A DNA stretch of 31,135 bases. It comes from a virus. A program made the position numbers and the translations under genes. Position 1 is the stretch's first letter, and each line of letters opens with the position of its first letter. The DNA lies in the IMG/VR virus record IMGVR_UViG_3300025809_000005, positions 1-31,135 of that record; one strand, 5' to 3'. The notes under the pieces are model-generated. The model saw nothing but the letters and a program-made list of their open reading frames with translations. It was not told where the DNA came from and did no database searches. Shown one piece after another: positions 5,192-31,135 of the stretch.

Positions 5192-5227
5192 ATATATATA
5201 ACGAAATAAAATCTACATTTTGTATTA
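5192..5227 (-). promoter_or_regulatory. Late-class promoter A (ATACAAAAT-N13-CGTTATATATAT-ATG)
   Basis: Minus strand reads TAATACAAAATGTAGATTTTATTTCGTTATATATAT followed directly by ATG (5191). Same architecture at 7468, 9331 and 17279. Confidence 0.55.
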
Positions 5228-7467: not shown

Positions 7468-7505
7468 ATGTATATATAACGGTTAATAAATATTATTTTG
7501 TATTT
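7468..7505 (-). promoter_or_regulatory. Late-class promoter B
   Basis: Minus strand: AAATACAAAATAATATTTATTAACCGTTATATATACAT then ATG (7467). The N13 spacing is conserved. Confidence 0.55.
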
Positions 7506-8107: not shown

Positions 8108-8729
8108 AGCTTTGTGTTTTTTGTATAAAGTATATTATATCCCATATCTTAGCAGTACCTCCTATAGGTGTAACTTTTACAAAAGATCCATTGTCTACAA
8201 AGTTTTGGTCTGCATAGTATTGAAATACTTGATGGAACTCGTGAGCAACGTCATTACCTTTAGGGAACGATATATCAACCCCTACTCTTTCGTAAGGTGT
8301 TCCGTTCTCTGCATCTAACTGTAATCTCATATAAGTCTGATTAGCATTTGCACTTGAACACTTAAAAGCAATAGTCAATACATAAACATCATTCAAATTA
8401 TCAGCTAACACTCTTTTGGTTATGCCATTGTAGTAATCAATACCTGAGTAGCTTCTGTAAATATTAGCAGCATTGTTAGGTAAAGTAATTTCTACGCCAT
8501 CTGCTAAATTTAATTTACTAGCTGAGGTATATTGATCGTCATCGTATCTAGTCCACCCTATTCCTGTTCCTACGCCTGCTTGAGGGTATAATTTAACCCA
8601 TTGTCCTTTATAAACAGTCCATACTCCGGATTCAGTAGTAACATACGCCCCTTCTTCAATATTATATTGATTCCTTACTGCGTCTGTATCTACGTCTACT
8701 TGTACTTTGTATGAAGTGTTTTTAGTCAT
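8100..8729 (-). CDS. Hypothetical virion protein (beta-rich)
   Basis: 209 aa between the protease and scaffold genes. No recognisable motif. Confidence 0.5.
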   Translation of the reverse strand: MTKNTSYKVQVDVDTDAVRNQYNIEEGAYVTTESGVWTVYKGQWVKLYPQAGVGTGIGWTRYDDDQYTSASKLNLADGVEITLPNNAANIYRSYSGIDYYNGITKRVLADNLNDVYVLTIAFKCSSANANQTYMRLQLDAENGTPYERVGVDISFPKGNDVAHEFHQVFQYYADQNFVDNGSFVKVTPIGGTAKIWDIIYFIQKTQSYA

Positions 8730-9330
8730 TAAATAATGATTTTAGCTTTTCAATAGTTTTAGTAGCCTCTTGCTCCTCTTTTGACATCCCTACTGATTCG
8801 TTAGGTCGCTCCATTTTATCTGCAAAGTACCCTTCGATCGAAAATCCTTTTACTTTACCGGTCTTAACGTAATCATTCCAAACTTCATCGTTATTTACTT
8901 TAACAGCTCCCATCCACGTTCCAATCGGTACATTCATTCCGTATTTACGTGATTTATCGTGTACTTCATCTTCTACTATCCACGATTCTACTAAAGACAA
9001 TCCTTTTAATTCGTATTGATGCTCCATCGTCGAATTATTTTGATTGCCTGCCATTAAATACATTTGAGAGGCTTTTAAGACAGTATCTTTTGAAAAATAT
9101 ATATAGTATTCATCTTCAGCGTTTCGTCTATATATCGGCTTGTTAGGTACTAATAAAGCACCCATTAATAATCTTTTTTCTTTTGATATTTCCGCTAGCT
9201 TGATTTCTTCAGCACTTAATGCAACAAAATCTTCTTCAATAGCTGGGTTCTCAACAACAGATATAGCCTCTATTCCGGTCATATCTTGTTCTTCATCGAT
9301 TACTAATTCTATTATCTTAAAATTACTCAT
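8722..9330 (-). CDS. XkdF-like putative prohead serine protease (S78_2-like)
   Basis: 202 aa. The pattern GIEAISVVENPAIEEDFVAL ... LLVPNKPIYR ... VESWIV ... GTWMGAVKV ... GFSIEGYF resembles PBSX XkdF-family proteins. Head-module position. Confidence 0.5.
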   Translation of the reverse strand: MSNFKIIELVIDEEQDMTGIEAISVVENPAIEEDFVALSAEEIKLAEISKEKRLLMGALLVPNKPIYRRNAEDEYYIYFSKDTVLKASQMYLMAGNQNNSTMEHQYELKGLSLVESWIVEDEVHDKSRKYGMNVPIGTWMGAVKVNNDEVWNDYVKTGKVKGFSIEGYFADKMERPNESVGMSKEEQEATKTIEKLKSLFND

Positions 9331-9366
9331 ATCTATATAACGAATTAAATTTTAAATTTTGTATTT
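9331..9366 (-). promoter_or_regulatory. Late-class promoter C
   Basis: Minus strand: AAATACAAAATTTAAAATTTAATTCGTTATATAGAT then ATG (9330). It begins at the stop codon of the upstream gene. Confidence 0.55.
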
Positions 9367-17278: not shown

Positions 17279-17314
17279 ATATATATAACGAATTTAATTA
17301 ACGATTTTAGAAAT
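17279..17314 (-). promoter_or_regulatory. Late-class promoter D
   Basis: Minus strand: ATTTCTAAAATCGTTAATTAAATTCGTTATATATAT then ATG (17278). Sits directly downstream of a terminator. Confidence 0.5.
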
Positions 17315-18393: not shown

Positions 18394-18460
18394 TTGTCTG
18401 TCTTTTTAAATGATACTGTAATATAATACAGATATTTTAATTATCAAAATTATTTAATAA
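18394..18460 (-). promoter_or_regulatory. Early/middle-class promoter-leader module E1
   Basis: Minus strand: TTATTAAATAATTTTGATAA-N-ATCTGTATTATATTACAG-N-AAAAAGACAGACAA-ATG. This reads as TTGATA-N16-TATATT. TAATTTTG also fits TAnnTTTG. The CTGTA-N6-TACAG palindrome (18416..18431) spans the -10-like box. Confidence 0.5.
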
Positions 18461-18899: not shown

Positions 18900-18983
18900 T
18901 TTTTCTGTCTTTTAATAATTAATATGCTGTAATATAAAACAGATAAATGAGTTATCAAAATAATTTAATAAGTTTTTTTAAAA
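18900..18983 (-). promoter_or_regulatory. Early/middle-class promoter-leader module E2
   Basis: Minus strand: TTATTAAATTATTTTGATAA-N-ATCTGTTTTATATTACAG-N-AAAAGACAGAAAAA-ATG. Same geometry as E1 (TTGATA-N16-TATATT), with palindrome CTGT-N8-ACAG at 18927..18942. Confidence 0.5.
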
Positions 18984-21048: not shown

Positions 21049-21113
21049 TTGTCTTGTCTTTAATTAATAATTTATACAATAAAGTTAATAAATATAAATC
21101 ATATAGAGAAATA
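21049..21113 (-). promoter_or_regulatory. Early/middle-class promoter-leader module E5 (degenerate)
   Basis: Minus strand: TTTATTAACTTTATTGTATAAATTATTAATTAAAGACAAGACAA-ATG. TGTATAAAT is extended -10-like, and the AAAGACAAGACAA leader is present. Confidence 0.35.
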
Positions 21114-21851
21114 TTATATTATTATTTTTTGTGTCCTGTCTATATTTAGTTTTAAGCTATACTTGTTTTCACGTTCAGTAATCTTTATATGCTTGCCCCA
21201 TTTGTCTTTTAGGAATTGTATTTCTTTGTTTACCGAGTCCTGATTTCTGTACAAGCTATTCCCCCCGACGTTATTGTCTCGTTTACATCCAAAAGAAAAT
21301 CTATTGTCTACCCATACAATCCGGTCTTTAAGTAAACATTGCAAGCTATAGTCTGCGTCTACTTTCGTTTTATTTATCTCAGTAAATTTGTATTTACGTC
21401 CAATGATACCTACAATCGTTCCTGTCCACGTCTTTAGATTAAACGGTTGTGTGTGATCATATTTTCTTATATCGCCTTGTACTTGGTTAAAACTAAACAT
21501 AGAGGCTCCTGCTTCTAAACAATTACTAGCACAATTATCGATAATCAAATCGATCATATCCACGTCTGTAATCTTAAACGCTTTTATATTTAACAAAGAG
21601 AAAAAACAATCGATGTCATCGTCAAACATTACGAGTATTTCGTCTTTATAATAGTCAAGTACCCAATTACGTACAGCTCCTAGACCTTTAATACTATCCG
21701 GTATCTCTACAATATCATTTGCATTGTGTACTACTGTCTTATATTTATCTACTTCGGATGTCGGTACTACTAGATCAAAATCCTTTAACACGTTATGAGT
21801 GCATATAGTGGACGATCTCCCCCTACTTAATATGATCTTCTTAATTTTCAT
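21114..21851 (-). CDS. GT-A-like glycosyltransferase candidate (DxD)
   Basis: 245 aa. IKGLGAVRNWVLDYYKDEILVMFDDDID resembles the GT-A G-x-ArN ... DxD core. Start overlaps the ParB gene by 11 nt. Confidence 0.4.
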   Translation of the reverse strand: MKIKKIILSRGRSSTICTHNVLKDFDLVVPTSEVDKYKTVVHNANDIVEIPDSIKGLGAVRNWVLDYYKDEILVMFDDDIDCFFSLLNIKAFKITDVDMIDLIIDNCASNCLEAGASMFSFNQVQGDIRKYDHTQPFNLKTWTGTIVGIIGRKYKFTEINKTKVDADYSLQCLLKDRIVWVDNRFSFGCKRDNNVGGNSLYRNQDSVNKEIQFLKDKWGKHIKITERENKYSLKLNIDRTQKIII

Positions 21852-22449
21852 TTTTAAGCAATTTAAGGAGTACGTCAGAGCTTATAACACGTCCTAGTCC
21901 TAGTTTCTTTGTTTTAGGACTGAGTGATACTCTTTGTTTTTCTAATCCTAATTGCGATATTGCCTGTACCCAATCGTTACTATTGTTGAATATGAATACT
22001 AAATAATCGTGGTGTTCATTAAATTTGAGATCCATATCCCTAACAATTTCCCCTTTTTCTTTTTCATCTACTTTATCAGATTCTTCAAAGTACAATACGT
22101 TTAGTCCATAGTCTGCTAACGTGTCTAGCTCATACTCCTGACTTAATACATCGTAATCCCAATTACCAAAGCTAACGTTGTCTTTAATAACAAATTCTTT
22201 TTTTTCTTCTTCAGTCCACCCTTCCATATCGTCTACCCATATCTCAGTATGACCTAAGTGCTTATGAGCTTTCAATCTCATATTCCCACCCTGTACTATC
22301 ATATTTTCGTCTACAATAATTGGTCTTACTTCCATCATTTTTGGAAACTCCTTAATACTGTTTACTAGCTTCTCAAATTGAAATCCTTTTATCGTTCTAG
22401 GATTGTCCGGATTCTCTTTTATTTGATCTATAGGTACTAAACGCTTCAT
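21841..22449 (-). CDS. ParB/Srx N-terminal-domain protein
   Basis: 202 aa. VPIDQIKENPDNPRTI ... LVNSIKEF ... PIIVDENMIVQGGNMRLKAHKHLG is a ParBc pattern. The following FVIKDNVSFGNWDYDVL resembles the linker seen in ParB-methylase fusions. Confidence 0.65.
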   Translation of the reverse strand: MKRLVPIDQIKENPDNPRTIKGFQFEKLVNSIKEFPKMMEVRPIIVDENMIVQGGNMRLKAHKHLGHTEIWVDDMEGWTEEEKKEFVIKDNVSFGNWDYDVLSQEYELDTLADYGLNVLYFEESDKVDEKEKGEIVRDMDLKFNEHHDYLVFIFNNSNDWVQAISQLGLEKQRVSLSPKTKKLGLGRVISSDVLLKLLKNEN

Positions 22450-22461
22450 ATATATAACGAT
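22450..22461 (-). promoter_or_regulatory. Late-type CGTTATATAT box abutting the ParB ATG (partial motif)
   Basis: Minus strand: TAAATCGTTATATAT-ATG. The upstream ATACAAAAT element is absent at N13. Confidence 0.25.
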
Positions 22462-22899: not shown

Positions 22900-23646
22900 T
22901 TATAAATTTTTGTAAAATTCTACTACTGTGTTTTTAAACCAATAGGCAAAACTTTCGTCTCCATCCGGTAACGGATCTTTATTGACGCTTAAATGATTTG
23001 AAGATGCTAATTGAAATGCTTTTAACATTCCGTATCTATCTTCTTTGTAATTCATTATTAATTTTGCTGCGTGTCTTAATACTTGTGCAGGCATCCTTCT
23101 TTTTCCATATCTGCTAACTAAAGTCGAAATAGTTTCGCATAGATCGTCTGAAAATTCTTTATTGATAAATTTTAAATTTCCTGATTTTATAGACGGATGT
23201 CCCCTTTCAATTCCATCGTAACAAGTAGCTACAACGCCATTTGATAACGTCTTTTGGTAATTAATCATTTGATTACGTAAGTGCATATACTCCGGTATCT
23301 TTTTATCTGACCAAGATTTTACATAATCATACAGCGTCCATTGTTTGTTATGAGCGTTCAAATCGATAATAAAAGACTGTATATCTTCAAAGTCGCTATC
23401 GATCCAATCAATTACAGAACAAGGTACTTGAGCAATTTTATGCAATTTCAACGCCTGTACTCGGTGCTGTCCTTCTACTGCATAATATTTGTTTTTCTTT
23501 TTCACTACTTTAATAGTGTCTGCAAATCCGTTTTCGGATATTAGGTTGTACATCTTCTGTACGTGGCTTTCAGAAACTTCTCGGTTCCCTTCTACAAAGT
23601 TAATTGAAGTAATTGGTAGTACTTCGGTGTGTGATACATTGATCAT
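22900..23646 (-). CDS. ParB/Srx-fold protein with DGQHR-type motif (EGQHR)
   Basis: 248 aa. LPITSINFVEGNREVSESHVQKMYNLISENGF ... YYAVEGQHRVQALKL, followed by a helical C-terminal domain. Confidence 0.55.
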   Translation of the reverse strand: MINVSHTEVLPITSINFVEGNREVSESHVQKMYNLISENGFADTIKVVKKKNKYYAVEGQHRVQALKLHKIAQVPCSVIDWIDSDFEDIQSFIIDLNAHNKQWTLYDYVKSWSDKKIPEYMHLRNQMINYQKTLSNGVVATCYDGIERGHPSIKSGNLKFINKEFSDDLCETISTLVSRYGKRRMPAQVLRHAAKLIMNYKEDRYGMLKAFQLASSNHLSVNKDPLPDGDESFAYWFKNTVVEFYKNL

Positions 23647-23713
23647 AATATTTGAGGCTCTTAACCCCTTGTTTTGATACGCCTACTCTATTTGCTTTTC
23701 GGCTGCCGCAATT

Positions 23714-25449: not shown

Positions 25450-25513
25450 TGTCTGTCTTAATTACAAAGTAAAGATATAAAATTTATTTAATAATATTTA
25501 AACTTTATCAAAT
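25450..25513 (-). promoter_or_regulatory. Early/middle-class promoter-leader module E3
   Basis: Minus strand: TAAATTTGATAAAG...TTATTAAATAAATTTTATATCTTTACTTTGTAATTAAGACAGACA-ATG. TAAATTTG fits TAnnTTTG. Confidence 0.4.
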
Positions 25514-27274: not shown

Positions 27275-28189
27275 TTAAAAAGGTAATTTTACTTGCTCTT
27301 TTGAAGCATATTGTATTAAATTTTTATGGTTTACTTCAAATCCAACGTTATTAATAATACTTCTTAATCTTATTGGATCTTCTAAACTTGTTGGTCTACC
27401 TCCTGTATCTATGTCTTTTACTTTTCTTACGTGAATATGTGAATACATCCAATCAGTAGGATGCTGTATATATCTATGTATTACAATAAAATCGTCAGCA
27501 CGATTGACAAATTTACCCCCGCCTTCTACATCTGACGCCATTGGTGGTATTGGATGTCCGGCATAGTGTTCAGTATTGCCGTGTTTTTTCCTTAACGCTT
27601 CAGTCGCTGCGTGAGTATTAAGCCATATACTAATATTATTCTTTTTGCAAAATATTCTCATTTCACTTGTTGCTTGATAATCGTATTCGTGTCCGCTTAA
27701 TCCCCTTAATACATCTTTGTCCTTCATTAAACTATTATACGGATCGATCATAAGTCCATCGTAATCCCAAGCATCCTTAACGTATTGGGCAAGTTCTAAG
27801 ACACGTTTATATGTATAAAGGTCGTTTGGATCTACAAATTTAAAATGATCGTTTATATAGCTTATTTTTGCGTTAAAATCATCTTCTTCAATCTTATTAA
27901 TTGGTTTGCCTTCTATAAATTCGACAAGTTTTCTAATTAATGAGTAAGGTTCGTTTTCTGAGCTAAATACAAGCCATCTAGTTTTATGTTTAATTGTGTA
28001 CAATAACATTAAATATAATATTACTGTTGTTTTTCCTACGTTAGCGTGTCCTAGAATAACATTAAAGTTCCCGTGCTTAAATCTGAAATGTTCGTCTATT
28101 TCTTTTATTCCTAATTTTAATCCTTCTTTTATTTGTCCGGATCTTACTTTCTTTAATTTGTTTAATTGATCTTCAAAATTTATAAGCAT
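27275..28189 (-). CDS. DnaB_C / RecA-fold replicative helicase-like ATPase
   Basis: 304 aa. Walker A (ILGHANVGKTTVIL), Walker B-like YDGLMIDPYN, and later WLNTHA. C-terminus ...EQVKLPF. Confidence 0.6.
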   Translation of the reverse strand: MLINFEDQLNKLKKVRSGQIKEGLKLGIKEIDEHFRFKHGNFNVILGHANVGKTTVILYLMLLYTIKHKTRWLVFSSENEPYSLIRKLVEFIEGKPINKIEEDDFNAKISYINDHFKFVDPNDLYTYKRVLELAQYVKDAWDYDGLMIDPYNSLMKDKDVLRGLSGHEYDYQATSEMRIFCKKNNISIWLNTHAATEALRKKHGNTEHYAGHPIPPMASDVEGGGKFVNRADDFIVIHRYIQHPTDWMYSHIHVRKVKDIDTGGRPTSLEDPIRLRSIINNVGFEVNHKNLIQYASKEQVKLPF

Positions 28190-28215
28190 TGTCTGTCTGT
28201 TTTAGTCTAAGGTAT

Positions 28216-28244
28216 AAAAAAAGGGGATAAGTTTCCCTACCCCC
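28216..28244 (-). terminator. Intrinsic terminator after the SSB-like gene
   Basis: Minus strand: GGGGGTAGG-GAAA-CTTATCCCC (9 bp with two G.U pairs and a GNRA loop) followed by T7. Confidence 0.7.
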
Positions 28245-28251
28245 TATATTT

Positions 28252-28605
28252 TTAAAATGGTAAATCGCTATCACGGTCAGGAGAATGATCTTGACTTGTA
28301 ACGGTTTCTGCTTTTGGCAATTCGTCTATTTTCTTTACTTGCCACGCATCTAAATTTGTGTAATACTTTCCGTTGTATTCACTACATCTGATATTAAATT
28401 CTACAGTAACAAGATCGCCTTCATTATTGTAGTTTACAAATTTATCAATATATTCTACTTTATCTGCTTTCTTAAATATTCCAAAAGTATAAAGGTTGTT
28501 GTATTGTTCTCCGGTATCGATTAAAAAATCAATTGCTTTTGCTCCGTCTCTAAGATTCTTAACTTCGTTAATTGTCTTAATTTTTCCACTTATTGAATAT
28601 CCCAT
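28252..28605 (-). CDS. OB-fold ssDNA-binding-like protein (DUF3127-like) with SSB-type acidic tail
   Basis: 117 aa. ISGKIKTINEV ... YNNLYTFGIFKK ... GDLVTVEFNIRCSEYNGKYYTNLDAWQV resembles the DUF3127 layout. C-terminus DRDSDLPF (compare E. coli SSB DDDIPF). Confidence 0.5.
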   Translation of the reverse strand: MGYSISGKIKTINEVKNLRDGAKAIDFLIDTGEQYNNLYTFGIFKKADKVEYIDKFVNYNNEGDLVTVEFNIRCSEYNGKYYTNLDAWQVKKIDELPKAETVTSQDHSPDRDSDLPF

Positions 28606-28608
28606 AAT

Positions 28609-29007
28609 TTAACTATAAATATATTGTACTATTTTTTCTGCAAATGATAAAACTTCTTCTTCACTTGCTTTAGTGTCTTTATAAAAATTAACAGCACTAG
28701 CAACGCTAGATTGTCTAATAATAAATTTTTGTACGTCGTCCGGTTTCTTCTGAAAATTCCCTTGCGGTTTAGCGGGTTGGAAATTATTAGGTCTTACTAA
28801 TTTAGCAGTATTATAAATACGTCCATCGTATTCCTTTTGCTCTGACGTGAATTGACATTCGTCCCCTACTTGGTGCTTAAATTCTCCAATAGCGTTAAAT
28901 TGATAAACATTTCCGTCTGCCATTGATACATTGTAGCGATTGAATGTTTTAGATCCGTTGCTCCACGATCCGTTGGGAGTAATTCCGGTAATCTTACCTG
29001 TTTTCAT
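28609..29007 (-). CDS. OB-fold-like paralog with helical C-terminal extension
   Basis: 132 aa. KTGKITGITPNGSW ... YNVSMADGNVYQFNAIG ... VGDECQF ... DGRIYNTAKLV mirrors the neighbouring OB-like gene. Confidence 0.4.
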   Translation of the reverse strand: MKTGKITGITPNGSWSNGSKTFNRYNVSMADGNVYQFNAIGEFKHQVGDECQFTSEQKEYDGRIYNTAKLVRPNNFQPAKPQGNFQKKPDDVQKFIIRQSSVASAVNFYKDTKASEEEVLSFAEKIVQYIYS

Positions 29008-29125
29008 TTTCTAATTGATTTTGATTGTTTAATATTTCTATTTGTGCTTCTAAAAATTCCACTCGTCTCTCTAATGCGTCTATTCGCATTTCGTGTAATC
29101 TTTTTAAATCGTCTGAATATGTCAT
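28994..29125 (-). CDS. Small coiled-coil ORF (43 aa), not in the track
   Basis: Hand translation: MTYSDDLKRLHEMRIDALERRVEFLEAQIEILNNQNQLENENR. TAATG overlap upstream. Overlaps the next ATG. Confidence 0.4.
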   Translation of the reverse strand: MTYSDDLKRLHEMRIDALERRVEFLEAQIEILNNQNQLENENR

Positions 29126-29265
29126 TATTCCAAACTTTTTAATTCCTTCCTAAAAATCTCAATTTGAAATTCTGCCTCATTAAGTTTCTTTTGGTGGTAA
29201 TCTTCTGTCCACTCAAGGTCTTTAATCTTAGCTTTTAATAATTCGATTTGCAAATTTTTGTCCAT
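29125..29265 (-). CDS. Small coiled-coil ORF (46 aa), not in the track
   Basis: Hand translation: MDKNLQIELLKAKIKDLEWTEDYHQKKLNEAEFQIEIFRKELKSLE. Preceded by the E4 module and an AAAGACAATAAA leader. Confidence 0.4.
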   Translation of the reverse strand: MDKNLQIELLKAKIKDLEWTEDYHQKKLNEAEFQIEIFRKELKSLE

Positions 29266-29330
29266 TTTATTGTCTTTAAATGATTAATATACCCAAAGAT
29301 AATAAAAATATTTAATAAAAAACAAAATGT
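29266..29330 (-). promoter_or_regulatory. Early/middle-class promoter-leader module E4 (best Bacteroidota-type promoter)
   Basis: Minus strand: TTTG(29326..29323)-N21-TATCTTTG(29301..29294), overlapping GGGTATATTAAT, then CATTTAAAGACAATAAA-ATG. Directly downstream of a terminator. Confidence 0.5.
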
Positions 29331-29363
29331 AAAAAAAAAAGGAGCATCTATAAAAGACACTCC
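29331..29363 (-). terminator. Intrinsic terminator
   Basis: Minus strand: GGAGTGTC-TTTTATA-GATGCTCC (8 bp with two G.U pairs) followed by T10. Confidence 0.75.
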
Positions 29364-29402
29364 CTTTCGGTATTAAAGACAAATTATTAAGACAGACTTT
29401 GT
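29331..29402 (-). ncRNA. Candidate ~70-nt sRNA / 3'UTR-derived RNA antisense to the AAGACAGACAA leaders
   Basis: Noncoding tract between the NinG-like stop and the terminator. A -10-like ATTATATTTACA is followed by AGTCTGTCTTAAT and TTTGTCTTTAA, the reverse complements of the leader motif upstream of six ATGs. It ends at hairpin+T10. Confidence 0.3.
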
Positions 29403-29444
29403 AAATATAATAATTACTGGCTATACTTCCATAAAAATATTAAA

Positions 29445-29828
29445 TTATTTTTTTAATTGATCTATTTTGTTTTTATACATTTCGATCATTTCCTGCAATT
29501 CCCAATTTGAGAACTTTTTAGTTTCTCTACTAAGTGCTAGTAATTCATCTGATAATTCTTGCCCTAAATATTTTGAGAATTTATACTGTTCTCCATAACG
29601 ATAAACATTACAAGCTATACATTGTACTTCTACATTACGTTCGTCCCACCTAGTCGAATAATGCTTACGGCTCATAAAATGTCCTGCCTGTAGATTTTTC
29701 CAATGATCCTTCTTACTACAAGTTACGCACTCAGCTACTTCATTTTTAGCTTTACGTCTTCTAATGTATTCAGAAAAAATTTTGTCTAGCTTATTAACTA
29801 ACGTCTTACGAGATGGTGCTTTTGCCAT
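29445..29828 (-). CDS. NinG/Rap-like recombination endonuclease
   Basis: 127 aa. FSEYIRRR ... CVTCSKK ... LQAGHFMSRKHYSTRWDERNVEVQCIACN matches the lambda NinG family Cys/His pattern. Confidence 0.6.
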   Translation of the reverse strand: MAKAPSRKTLVNKLDKIFSEYIRRRKAKNEVAECVTCSKKDHWKNLQAGHFMSRKHYSTRWDERNVEVQCIACNVYRYGEQYKFSKYLGQELSDELLALSRETKKFSNWELQEMIEMYKNKIDQLKK

Positions 29829-30055
29829 TAATAACCGTCTTGGTGCTGTAAAAGTAATTTACCGGTTGCTATATCTAAGTCTTTTATTGCTTTGTATATA
29901 ATTCTAGAATTTTTTTTTACTTCTTGCTTCTCAGCTTTTGTACTATCAGATCCTAGATTCGTGTACATTGTTGCGTCAATTTCTAGTAGCTCGTTAATTC
30001 TTTGTACTACTGTTTTTTGATAATCTTCTGCAATTCTTAAAATTTCTTCACGCAT
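29828..30055 (-). CDS. Hypothetical protein, first gene after the A/T-only tract
   Basis: 75 aa, helical. Stop/start overlap with the NinG-like gene. Confidence 0.5.
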   Translation of the reverse strand: MREEILRIAEDYQKTVVQRINELLEIDATMYTNLGSDSTKAEKQEVKKNSRIIYKAIKDLDIATGKLLLQHQDGY

Positions 30056-30143
30056 ATATTATATATATTATTATTTATTATATATTATTATATTATATTA
30101 TATATATTATAAAATAAATCTTTTTTTTAAAATTACAAAAAAA
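30054..30143. other. Near-pure A/T tract (TA/TTA microrepeats): candidate DUE/origin and late-to-early boundary
   Basis: 30054..30119 contains no G or C (atatattatatatattattatttattatatatt...). Only 3 G/C in the next 24 nt. Lies between the last lysis gene and the first early gene. Confidence 0.4.
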
Positions 30144-30581
30144 TTATCGATTTTCTTTTTTTGCACTACCGAAATAATATCCAAAGATACTTAATGCTAC
30201 TCCTTCTACTATCCCCAACAAATGTATGAAAATTTCTTTATTACTCTCAGGTACTTGAGTAGTTACTACAGTATAAACTAAAAAAGCAAAGGCTAATAAT
30301 CCAACAATACCGGTCGCATTAAACATCCAATCGGTTCCGTACTTTCTTAAACGTACTTCTCTACGTCTTGCAGAATCTCGATCGCTTACTTCTATCCTAT
30401 ATGCTTCTAAGGCTTCGTTTAATGCCTGTTCTTTTTCTTCCGGTGTAAGTGTATCGTCTCCATCTAAAACATCCTTTAAAATGCCTAATATGCCTTTTTC
30501 AGGTAATATTCCTGTCAGCTTTCCGACAATCTTACCTAGTTTAGTTTCTTTAAAGGGTTTTTTTTCCATTAGTACGTCCAA
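30144..30581 (-). CDS. Membrane protein, holin-like (soluble N-domain plus 2 C-terminal TM)
   Basis: 145 aa. A charged helical N-half (EVSDRDSARRREVRLRK), then TM helices GIVGLLAFAFLVYTVV and LLGIVEGVALSIFGYYF. Overlaps the endolysin gene by 13 nt. Confidence 0.45.
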   Translation of the reverse strand: MDVLMEKKPFKETKLGKIVGKLTGILPEKGILGILKDVLDGDDTLTPEEKEQALNEALEAYRIEVSDRDSARRREVRLRKYGTDWMFNATGIVGLLAFAFLVYTVVTTQVPESNKEIFIHLLGIVEGVALSIFGYYFGSAKKENR

Positions 30582-30922
30582 ATTACATTAGGTGCTTTAT
30601 CCGGATCATTGTCTACGTGAATAAAACTATCTGCTATTCCTATTCGATTTAATCCTACTTTCAATAAAGCAGCAATTATTTTATATCGATATACGCTATT
30701 GCTACAAGCTATATCTGCTGCGTGTCCGGTAATATGACTTGAATTTTCTACTCCCCCGACTTTGATATTCCACGCCTTTGATCTTAGCCCTGACGTAATT
30801 TTAAAAGGTACACCGGCAATAGATCTTGCTTGATCAATACGTGTCAGAAACTCCGGATCCATAGCTTCACCACTTCCCACCATATCAGGACTATCAAACT
30901 CAGAAAGTTTAAAATATTTCAT
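30569..30922 (-). CDS. Endolysin, peptidase M15 (VanY / L-Ala-D-Glu peptidase-like)
   Basis: 117 aa. FKLSEF ... PFKITSGLRSKAWNIKVGGVENSSHITGHAADI ... FIHVD gives the H-D-H zinc-ligand pattern of Peptidase_M15_3. Confidence 0.8.
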   Translation of the reverse strand: MKYFKLSEFDSPDMVGSGEAMDPEFLTRIDQARSIAGVPFKITSGLRSKAWNIKVGGVENSSHITGHAADIACSNSVYRYKIIAALLKVGLNRIGIADSFIHVDNDPDKAPNVIWTY

Positions 30923-31077
30923 AGTATCTTACCAATTAACATACTTGTAAGAATCATAATAAGCATCCAAAATAAACCAAATTGAACCTTATCCCAAGTA
31001 CTACCCTCTTTCTTTTGGTGTAGCCATATCTTAAATTCTATAAACTTAAATACTATTTTATCAATTAGCTTTCTCAT
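30919..31077 (-). CDS. Small single-TM ORF (52 aa) spanning the circular join, not in the track
   Basis: Verified codon by codon: MRKLIDKIVFKFIEFKIWLHQKKEGSTWDKVQFGLFWMLIMILTSMLIGKIL. ATGA overlap with the endolysin start. The start overlaps the end of ORF 53..346 (as its copy in the terminal overlap). Confidence 0.45.
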   Translation of the reverse strand: MRKLIDKIVFKFIEFKIWLHQKKEGSTWDKVQFGLFWMLIMILTSMLIGKIL

Positions 31078-31135
31078 TTATTTTCTCGTTTAGTCGTTTA
31101 ATATCTTTTCTTACTCTTTCCCTTTCAAGTTTTAT
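31009..31135. repeat. Terminal overlap: exact copy of 1..127
   Basis: Identical to the first 127 nt of the window. Confidence 0.95.

Follow-up and report, generated by a model that had tools for sequence, protein, structure and literature searches.

Why does a NinG/Rap-like gene in a closely packed phage genome leave 76 nt between its stop codon and a strong intrinsic terminator, and what might be encoded there? The question is raised by IMG/VR virus record IMGVR_UViG_3300025809_000005, of which positions 1 to 31,135 were analysed (the whole stretch, referred to below as the window). At 33.5% G+C, this phage segment of roughly 31 kb is AT-rich, and all its plausible genes are located on the minus strand, mostly abutting or overlapping. 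The gene in question is an open reading frame (ORF) at 29445..29828 (-) matching PHROG phrog_5034 (NinG/Rap, E=4.3e-26), and the candidate element lies in, or just 3' of, its 3' untranslated region (3'UTR). Conservation, promoter and terminator anatomy, the position of the targets and lineage-level covariation support the reading that this region encodes a trans-acting anti-leader small RNA (sRNA), or a 3'UTR with the same role, which would block translation initiation where Shine-Dalgarno pairing is not used; judged on sequence comparison, we consider this reading probable, though well short of secure.

A terminated tract complementary to six leaders

The sequence-only reading had described a NinG-like gene, a noncoding gap and a strong terminator, and the description proved accurate down to the quoted letters. 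The stop codon (at 29445) is separated by the 76-nt gap from the stem of an intrinsic terminator at 29331..29368 (-), made up of a 14-bp hairpin (29368..29336) and ten T residues (T10, 29340..29331), with a fold energy of -17 kcal/mol (z=-3.2 relative to shuffled sequences). Between stop codon and stem the gene strand reads ...TTATATTTACAAAGTCTGTCTTAATAATTTGTCTTTAATACCGA, a U/G-rich, unstructured tract in which two words, GUCUGUCUUAAU and UUGUCUUUAAU, are perfect complements (8-12 nt) of leaders whose ends are 0-5 nt away from six operon-leading ATGs. Seed 1 (GUCUGUCUUAAU, 29386..29397 (-)) is a perfect 12-nt complement of the leader ATTAAGACAGAC, to which the tract word GTCTGTCTTAAT is the exact complement, and also matches the leaders of ATG 18393 (9 nt) and of ATGs 28189 and 18899 (8 nt each). 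Seed 2 (AUUUGUCUUUAAU, 29372..29384 (-)) is complementary to ATTAAAGACAA (ATG 21048, 11 nt) and TTAAAGACAA (ATG 29265, 10 nt), the tract word TTGTCTTTAAT being the complement of both. A third GTCTTT was present in the terminator stem, as had been pointed out (AAGACA on the (+) strand at 29354).

The six targets, all on the minus strand, are TTAAAGACAA (29270..29279, 4 nt before ATG 29265; 10-nt match), AGACAGAC (28191..28198, 1 nt before ATG 28189 of the primase/helicase gene; 8-nt match), ATTAAGACAGAC (25451..25462, 1 nt before ATG 25449 of a gene for a 103-aa protein; 12 nt, and the strongest predicted duplex at -18.6 kcal/mol), ATTAAAGACAA (21054..21064, 5 nt before ATG 21048 of an operon with terminase genes; 11-nt match), AAGACAGA (18904..18911, 4 nt before ATG 18899; 8-nt match) and AAGACAGAC (18396..18404, 2 nt before ATG 18393; 9-nt match). 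These match lengths agree with those of the sequence-only reading, except at ATG 21048, where 10 nt had been given. The distance from site to ATG is 1-5 nt in the window, and the distance from site to -7 box varies between 9 and 17 nt. ATG 28189 and its leader word come no more than about 25 nt after a strong terminator that ends the SSB gene's unit (28222..28245 (-)), and the interval holds no recognisable -7 box.

Predicted duplexes of the six targets range from -13 to -18.6 kcal/mol, and all six are among the 8 strongest of 58 start regions. The complementarity stood up to a shuffled-seed control, start regions with a match of at least 8 nt numbering 9 of 58 as against 2.1 for shuffled seeds (P=0.0075); the chance of the 12-mer match in the window is P ~0.01. 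An exhaustive count of AGACAGAC was non-significant (4 versus 1.13 expected) and was therefore dropped as an argument, position being used instead: three gene-strand copies lie 1-2 nt before an ATG, and the remaining one, on the (+) strand at 29390, is in the candidate. The claim that the motif is found in the opposite orientation only here thus held for this 8-mer and failed for shorter words. AAGACA occurs seven times on the + strand (three copies being in the candidate), and the (+) leader-word copies TAAAGACAA (8992..9000) and TTAAGACAG (9075..9083), 83 nt apart within the minus-strand gene 8722..9330, may be due to chance.

No Shine-Dalgarno sequence precedes start codons in the window, the closest protein-level relatives of the primase/helicase belong to Maribacter, Cellulophaga and Tenacibaculum phages, and a scan of 185,579 species genomes returned one match, a contig in a Flavobacteriales metagenome-assembled genome (MAG); a marine host within the Flavobacteriia is therefore almost certain. 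As that contig was the single match, prophage copies are without evidence in the genomes scanned. A megablast search of 28000..31135 against cultured phage genomes gave no match, and since relatives are distant at the protein level, no annotated or transcriptome-mapped relative was usable. Flavobacterial translation starts without Shine-Dalgarno pairing, and the flavobacterial sigma-A promoter consists of a -33 TTTG and a -7 TAnnTTTG, the -7 box being located at -12 to -5 (PMC9723704). By this consensus, TATATTTA at 29402..29409 (-) is a predicted sigma-A -7 box at -12 to -5. The same letters had been called -10-like and almost identical to a sequence of module E1; a box resembling ATTATATTACAG is indeed present upstream of ATGs 18393 and 18899, and a Bacteroidota sigma-A -7 box is the better reading of the candidate's own. 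The +1 suggested by its position is G 29397, giving a predicted small RNA of about 62-67 nt (29331..29397 (-)) with its 3' end within T10, and its seed-bearing 5' part is predicted to be largely unpaired (mean P(unpaired) 0.82 in the window and 0.46-0.96 in relatives). A whole-window Rfam scan gave no family at the candidate, and a search of 29200..29500 with a cut-off of E<=10 gave nothing but one snoRNA match, at E=10, that is attributed to chance.

The next promoter (E4) has its -7 box, TATCTTTG, at 29294..29301 (-), with TTTG 21 nt upstream, and its predicted 24-nt 5'UTR holds a target site; located 3' of the terminator, it provides the downstream operon with a promoter of its own. The terminator and E4 are flanked by an exact 10-bp inverted repeat (29270..29279 / 29373..29382), as the sequence-only reading had stated. 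In phage lambda, ninG is closely followed by Q, PR', the short 6S transcript and tR'. The promoter-like box and terminator after NinG resemble this arrangement in position, which would make the region a PR'-6S-tR'-like unit past the nin region, read through by a Q-like antiterminator that would turn on the genes beyond it. However, the consensus promoter past the terminator (TTTG-21-TATCTTTG) led us to reject a lambda 6S/Q-type reading, the genes downstream are replication genes rather than late genes, no Q-like protein was detected by PHROGs/Pfam among the genes scanned, the upstream promoter is missing in many lineages, and the seed-leader covariation described below would go unexplained. 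We regard this explanation as extremely unlikely.

Conservation and covariation across lineages

More than 700 NinG relatives are present in IMG/VR. A NinG scan yielded 442 relatives, of which the best 80 loci (58-100% NinG identity) were fetched as a first set, and an independent scan from a distant NinG (L075) provided a second set of 77 new loci; flanks extended up to 10 kb, some contigs being truncated, and gene calls were simple. A G+C-rich hairpin with a T-run was found 22-100 nt past the NinG stop codon in 76 of 76 first-set loci with enough downstream sequence, and tract and terminator were arranged in the same way in 76 of 76 testable second-set loci, with the T-run interrupted in 11. 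The layout of NinG stop, U/G-rich tract and terminator was thus present in 152 of 152 testable loci, with differing stem sequences. Relatives that kept the leaders and lacked an antisense copy would have spoken against the original proposal; none lacks the tract, though complementarity is weak in some lineages.

A TAnnTTT[GA] box 43-59 nt before the stem was found in 21-22 of the 33 non-redundant first-set loci, the -7 box position being occupied by TATATTTG in 19 promoter-type representatives and by TATATTTA in the window and L049. Placing the box at -12..-5 puts the predicted +1 of the promoter-type lineages at one of the two opening bases of the first complementary word, and the predicted RNA is 67-79 nt long. 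The remaining first-set lineages and the whole second clade are without the box, and their tract starts right after the stop codon, as a NinG 3'UTR. A primary sRNA and a 3'UTR-derived RNA had been put forward as alternatives; since promoter-type and box-less lineages are both present, both predicted forms appear to exist.

Two further observations concern individual relatives. One clade has an extra small hairpin between the seeds of the predicted RNA (UAAGGAGUAGUUUCCUUA in L018, 2837..2940 (+), and UUAGGAGUAGUUUCCUAA in L030, 6381..6485 (+)); the two hairpins differ by a compensatory A-U to U-A change, which would fit selection at the RNA level. In some relatives the leader word (CAGACAGAtg) precedes the start codon of NinG itself (L007:3878..3887 and L013:123..132, both (+)), so that the tract-carrying operon would itself be a target, which suggests autoregulation of the NinG operon in relatives such as these.

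A raw matrix of longest matches between seeds and leaders gave poor contrast (own 8.1 versus foreign 7.0 nt) owing to AT-rich sequence of low complexity; duplex energies normalised to background and matches weighted by information were used in its place. Duplex energies were normalised per seed against 358 internal start regions, and seed groups (10 in total) were permuted against leader groups. Ranked by duplex z-score, the seed of the own group came first, or close to first, for the operon-leading start regions of 8 of the 10 groups, and the group-level permutation gave p=5e-5, so that seeds and leaders change together among relatives. At the level of single loci, the own seed outperformed at least 95% of other-group seeds at 17 of 33 loci and, in the independent validation clade, at 15 of 31, with about 1.5 expected from chance. 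On the sense strand, the complement of the own tract had 225 matches of at least 15 bits, and 46 of these ended no more than 22 nt upstream of an operon-leading ATG (4.5 expected), most of the ATG-proximal matches being 0-6 nt from it. The best targets are not one orthologous gene, the proteins behind the best sites being unrelated between clades.

The words themselves differ from lineage to lineage. Where the window pairs tract GTCTGTCTTAAT with leader ATTAAGACAGAC, L004 pairs TCTGTCTTAATT with AATTAAGACAGA and TTGTCTTAA with TTAAGACAA, L005 TTGTCTAA with TTAGACAA, L007 TCTGTCTG with CAGACAGA(tg), L025 ATTTTGTCTTTA with TAAAGACAAAAT and TGTCATTAA with TTAATGACA, L031 CTTGTTTT with AAAACAAG, L036 TATCTGTTTTT with AAAAACAGATA, and L079 TTTTGTTTTGTTTT with AAAACAAAACAAAA(tg) (tract given before leader in each case). 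Perfect 14-nt matches were found in the second clade, in L083 (ATTGTTCTTTGTTT and AAACAAAGAACAAT), L155 (ATTGTTCTTTATTT and AAATAAAGAACAAT), L125 (ATTGTTTGTTTTAA and TTAAAACAAACAAT) and L132 (ATAATTGTTTGTTT and AAACAAACAATTAT). Compensatory differences are seen between L004 (TTGTCTTAA/TTAAGACAA) and L005 (TTGTCTAA/TTAGACAA), between the window (GUCUGUCUU/AAGACAGAC) and L007 (GUCUGUCUG/CAGACAGA), and between L083 (ATTGTTCTTTGTTT/AAACAAAGAACAAT) and L155 (ATTGTTCTTTATTT/AAATAAAGAACAAT), L079 (TTTTGTTTTGTTTT/AAAACAAAACAAAA) providing a further example.

These data bear on the simplest alternative, in which the complementarity is a by-product of composition, the leader being an unstructured A/C-rich aid to translation and the tract a U/G-rich spacer, with no regulatory pairing. 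In its favour, tract and leader alike are low-complexity sequence, Bacteroidota in general have A-rich leaders, many loci are at background complementarity and the number of AGACAGAC copies was non-significant. Against this, foreign tracts of the same composition fit worse than own-lineage tracts, the perfect 12-14-nt matches include G/C positions, specific compensatory substitutions separate close relatives, and the tract is kept down to 58% NinG identity, a divergence that would randomise a neutral spacer. We find the compositional explanation unlikely.

A second possibility is that the element acts only in cis: in read-through transcripts, the NinG 3'UTR would fold onto the leader of the next gene (in the window, through the 10-bp inverted repeat 29373..29382 / 29270..29279), so that this gene would be translated only from transcripts of its own promoter and no free small RNA would act on distant operons. 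In most lineages the tract does indeed match the leader of the next downstream gene, frequently better than any other leader (10 nt in the window and L024; 12 nt in L025, L029 and L072; 9-10 nt in L018, L019 and L079), and in many lineages the tract is without a promoter of its own. The terminators, however, are strong (T8-T10, stems of 11-16 bp), so read-through should be rare; the best matches are at least 4 kb away in the window (ATG 25449, 12 nt) and in the second clade (the 14-nt sites of L083, L125, L132 and L155), and the consensus -7 box in two thirds of first-set lineages would yield a separate RNA. An effect confined to cis is, in our judgement, improbable.

Several points weigh against an anti-leader RNA. 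The transcript and both its ends are predictions, and in the window the -7 box TATATTTA departs from consensus at its last base and the -33 region is TTAT rather than TTTG. Statistics for seed-leader matches from the window alone are moderate, and many coding sites match the seed complement too, one of them a 12-mer (TATTAAAGACAA) that lies at 22189 within a gene. Because the loci are phylogenetically related, the per-locus counts are non-independent, and only the group-level permutation corrects for this. Complementarity is no better than background in L049, L050, L042 and about half of the second clade, which may stem in part from truncated contigs and crude gene calls. Finally, positions flanking the matches contained 32 G:U and 33 A:C cells (26 and 36 expected). 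RNA pairing, unlike plain DNA similarity, should tolerate G:U but not A:C; these counts are neutral, and the argument for RNA over DNA is therefore an anatomical one.

That neutrality matters for a further alternative, in which the words are double-stranded DNA sites (operators or iterons) for a phage DNA-binding protein, such as a ParB-like one, that would control the early/middle operons, the post-NinG copies being extra sites in reversed orientation. A protein and its sites would likewise give covarying identical words, the counts just given (32 versus 33) lend RNA no favour, two ParB-like genes are present, and the cluster adjoins the replication module. Several features speak against such a protein: the words are asymmetric and A/C-rich, without dyad symmetry, and the leader sites share one orientation and are anchored to the ATG (0-6 nt) and not to the -7 box (9-17 nt), the target at ATG 28189 following a terminator with no evident promoter. 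A single genome can have two or three different words, each mirrored in its tract (for example TGTCATTAA and ATTTTGTCTTTA in L025). In 3'UTR-type lineages the antisense copies lie between stop codon and terminator hairpin, where there is no promoter to control, and in promoter-type lineages they begin at the predicted +1 and end before the terminator of an otherwise empty unit. No helix-turn-helix protein and, apart from the two ParB-like proteins, no DNA-binding regulator was detected by PHROGs/Pfam among the neighbouring and small early proteins, which is weak evidence. We hold the DNA-site explanation to be decidedly improbable.

A second leader class and neighbouring features

Another leader class, (T)CGTTATATATA(T), is found at five operon-leading genes, four of them in the structural/late region, with its end 0-2 nt from the ATG. 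Its sites are 5195..5203, 7473..7481, 9334..9342, 17282..17290 and 22451..22459, all on the minus strand, and its five gene-strand copies compare with 0.79 expected. This class has no antisense copy in the window, CGTTATATA being found five times on the gene strand and zero times on the + strand. It may represent a late promoter or a near-leaderless start signal; with TCGTTATATATAT directly before the ATG and no antisense copy, late operons would escape targeting by the putative RNA.

PHROGs and Pfam annotation identified NinG/Rap, SSB, primase/helicase, exonuclease, two ParB-like proteins, terminase and structural genes. The ParB-like paralogues (ParB nuclease / methyltransferase-associated) lie close together in the middle region, at 21841..22449 and 22900..23646 (-), and one of them is preceded by a late-type CGTTATATAT leader. 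A match to the Rfam DUF805b RNA (RF02914) was found at 23680..23712 (-), scoring 40.3 bits where the gathering score is 35.6 (whole-window E=2.8e-8), in the intergenic gap directly upstream of ATG 23646, the start of a ParB-like gene; DUF805b is a known Bacteroidota cis-regulatory motif, here located within a phage genome. An A+T-only tandem repeat at 30054..30111 (units ATATATT / TATAT, about 58 nt) occupies the gap before ATG 30055, where the 75-aa gene preceding NinG starts, and may serve as an origin or as an element upstream of a promoter. PHROG/Pfam annotation of the genes scanned, which were a part of the total, revealed no integrase, repressor or antirepressor.

A predicted anti-leader RNA and its relation to known systems

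The proposed course of events for an anti-leader RNA is as follows. Host sigma-A RNA polymerase would start at about G 29397, 5 nt past the -7 box TATATTTA, and stop at T10, for a product of about 65 nt. The NinG operon upstream would have its transcripts end at the same terminator with the tract as their 3'UTR; since the tract precedes an expressed operon's terminator, RNA containing the antisense words would be bound to be made. The first 30 nt or so would be single-stranded, exposing the two seeds GUCUGUCUUAAU and UUUGUCUUUAAU, which would pair with the A/C-rich 5'UTR segment 0-15 nt upstream of the first-cistron AUG of six early/middle operons (start codons 29265, 28189, 25449, 21048, 18899 and 18393). 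A duplex abutting the AUG would block loading of the 30S subunit and repress the first cistron, because Bacteroidota ribosomes need an unstructured A-rich leader rather than Shine-Dalgarno pairing, and with genes so tightly packed repression would extend to the cistrons behind it. The outcome would be feedback or timing control of early/middle expression. That such an RNA accumulates, pairs in vivo, represses and serves this physiological purpose is what we infer from its anatomy, conservation and complementarity and from the covariation and position of its targets. In silico, pairing across the initiation regions of the phage's own early and middle operons, the core of the sequence-only reading, agreed with the conservation, the unpaired seed, the covariation and the ATG-proximal sites.

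In phage T4, the protein RegA represses translation of many early mRNAs through a loosely conserved element at the start codon. The predicted system would similarly direct one phage factor to many early start codons; it differs in that the recognising agent would be RNA, not protein as with RegA, which would account for the antisense copy. Among RNAs, a close functional parallel is c4 of P1/P7, an antisense RNA of the immI region (Citron & Schuster 1990, as cited in PMC8198154). Like the candidate, c4 is a short phage RNA with two seeds that pairs before the ribosome-binding region of a phage gene and blocks expression, and seed and target show compensatory differences between related phages, with lineage-dependent specificity. 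In contrast, c4 is processed from the transcript of its single target (icd-ant) and belongs to temperate enterobacterial phages, where it acts in lysogenic immunity, whereas the candidate would have up to six operon-start targets spread over 11 kb, in a phage with no integrase or repressor seen and a host that does not use Shine-Dalgarno pairing. Satellite phage P4 likewise encodes a small RNA, CI, which acts at several complementary sites in leader transcripts of the same phage (seqB with seqA/seqC; PMC4825925). CI RNA arises by processing and, in the lysogenic state, brings transcription to a premature end (PMC4825925), and it is not homologous to the candidate, for which control of translation initiation is suggested by targets that abut start codons. 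Membership of the c4 or P4 CI / IsrK-seqA families found no support, the candidate having no match to an Rfam covariance model and, among the genes scanned, no temperate immunity-region context. The predicted anti-leader RNA, with multiple operon targets and in a different host phylum, is thus closest in function to P1/P7 c4 and P4 CI, and outside both families.

Within Bacteroidota, the B. thetaiotaomicron sRNA GibS acts independently of Hfq and ProQ, repressing its targets by pairing a single-stranded 5' seed with their translation-initiation regions (PMC7366714). The mostly unstructured 5' seed and intrinsic terminator are shared with the candidate, as are pairing at translation-initiation regions and repression, which are predicted for the candidate; GibS itself is chromosomal and sugar-responsive, targets host metabolic mRNAs and has no sequence similarity to the candidate. 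Other phage-related sRNAs include VpdS of VP882, CisR on CTXphi and StxS/6S from PR' (reviewed in PMC12197685; also PMC13250501). These, too, are small RNAs that end at operon terminators, occur in promoter-driven and 3'UTR forms and regulate phage and host mRNAs, but they are Hfq-dependent and proteobacterial, and mostly have host targets or single phage targets. An sRNA that mirrors a shared leader of several operons of its own genome is not reported in the phage-sRNA review (PMC12197685), and no small RNA of Bacteroidota or flavobacterial phages was described in the literature searched.

A bolder extension, which we put forward tentatively and think rather unlikely, is a lineage-specific 'RNA code': one anti-leader RNA, made early and as the NinG 3'UTR, would silence all early/middle operons of its own genome type, and likewise those of co-infecting or superinfecting relatives that share the code. 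Competition between phages would then be the force behind a joint diversification of each genome's seed with all of its leaders, in hundreds of marine flavobacterial phages. If this were true, it would amount to RNA-based immunity or exclusion in apparently lytic phages, in a host phylum without Shine-Dalgarno-dependent initiation and without Hfq, and would provide a natural set of orthogonal riboregulators.

Known phage regulatory RNAs are almost exclusively from enterobacterial and Vibrio phages and mostly act on one phage gene or on host targets, and post-transcriptional control in Bacteroidota is only starting to be charted. The natural compensatory variants constitute a ready mutant series, making the system readily testable. 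If the anti-leader RNA is real, one small RNA would control the start codons of several operons at once in a large group of abundant marine flavobacterial phages, and would offer a handle on how translation initiation is regulated without Shine-Dalgarno pairing.

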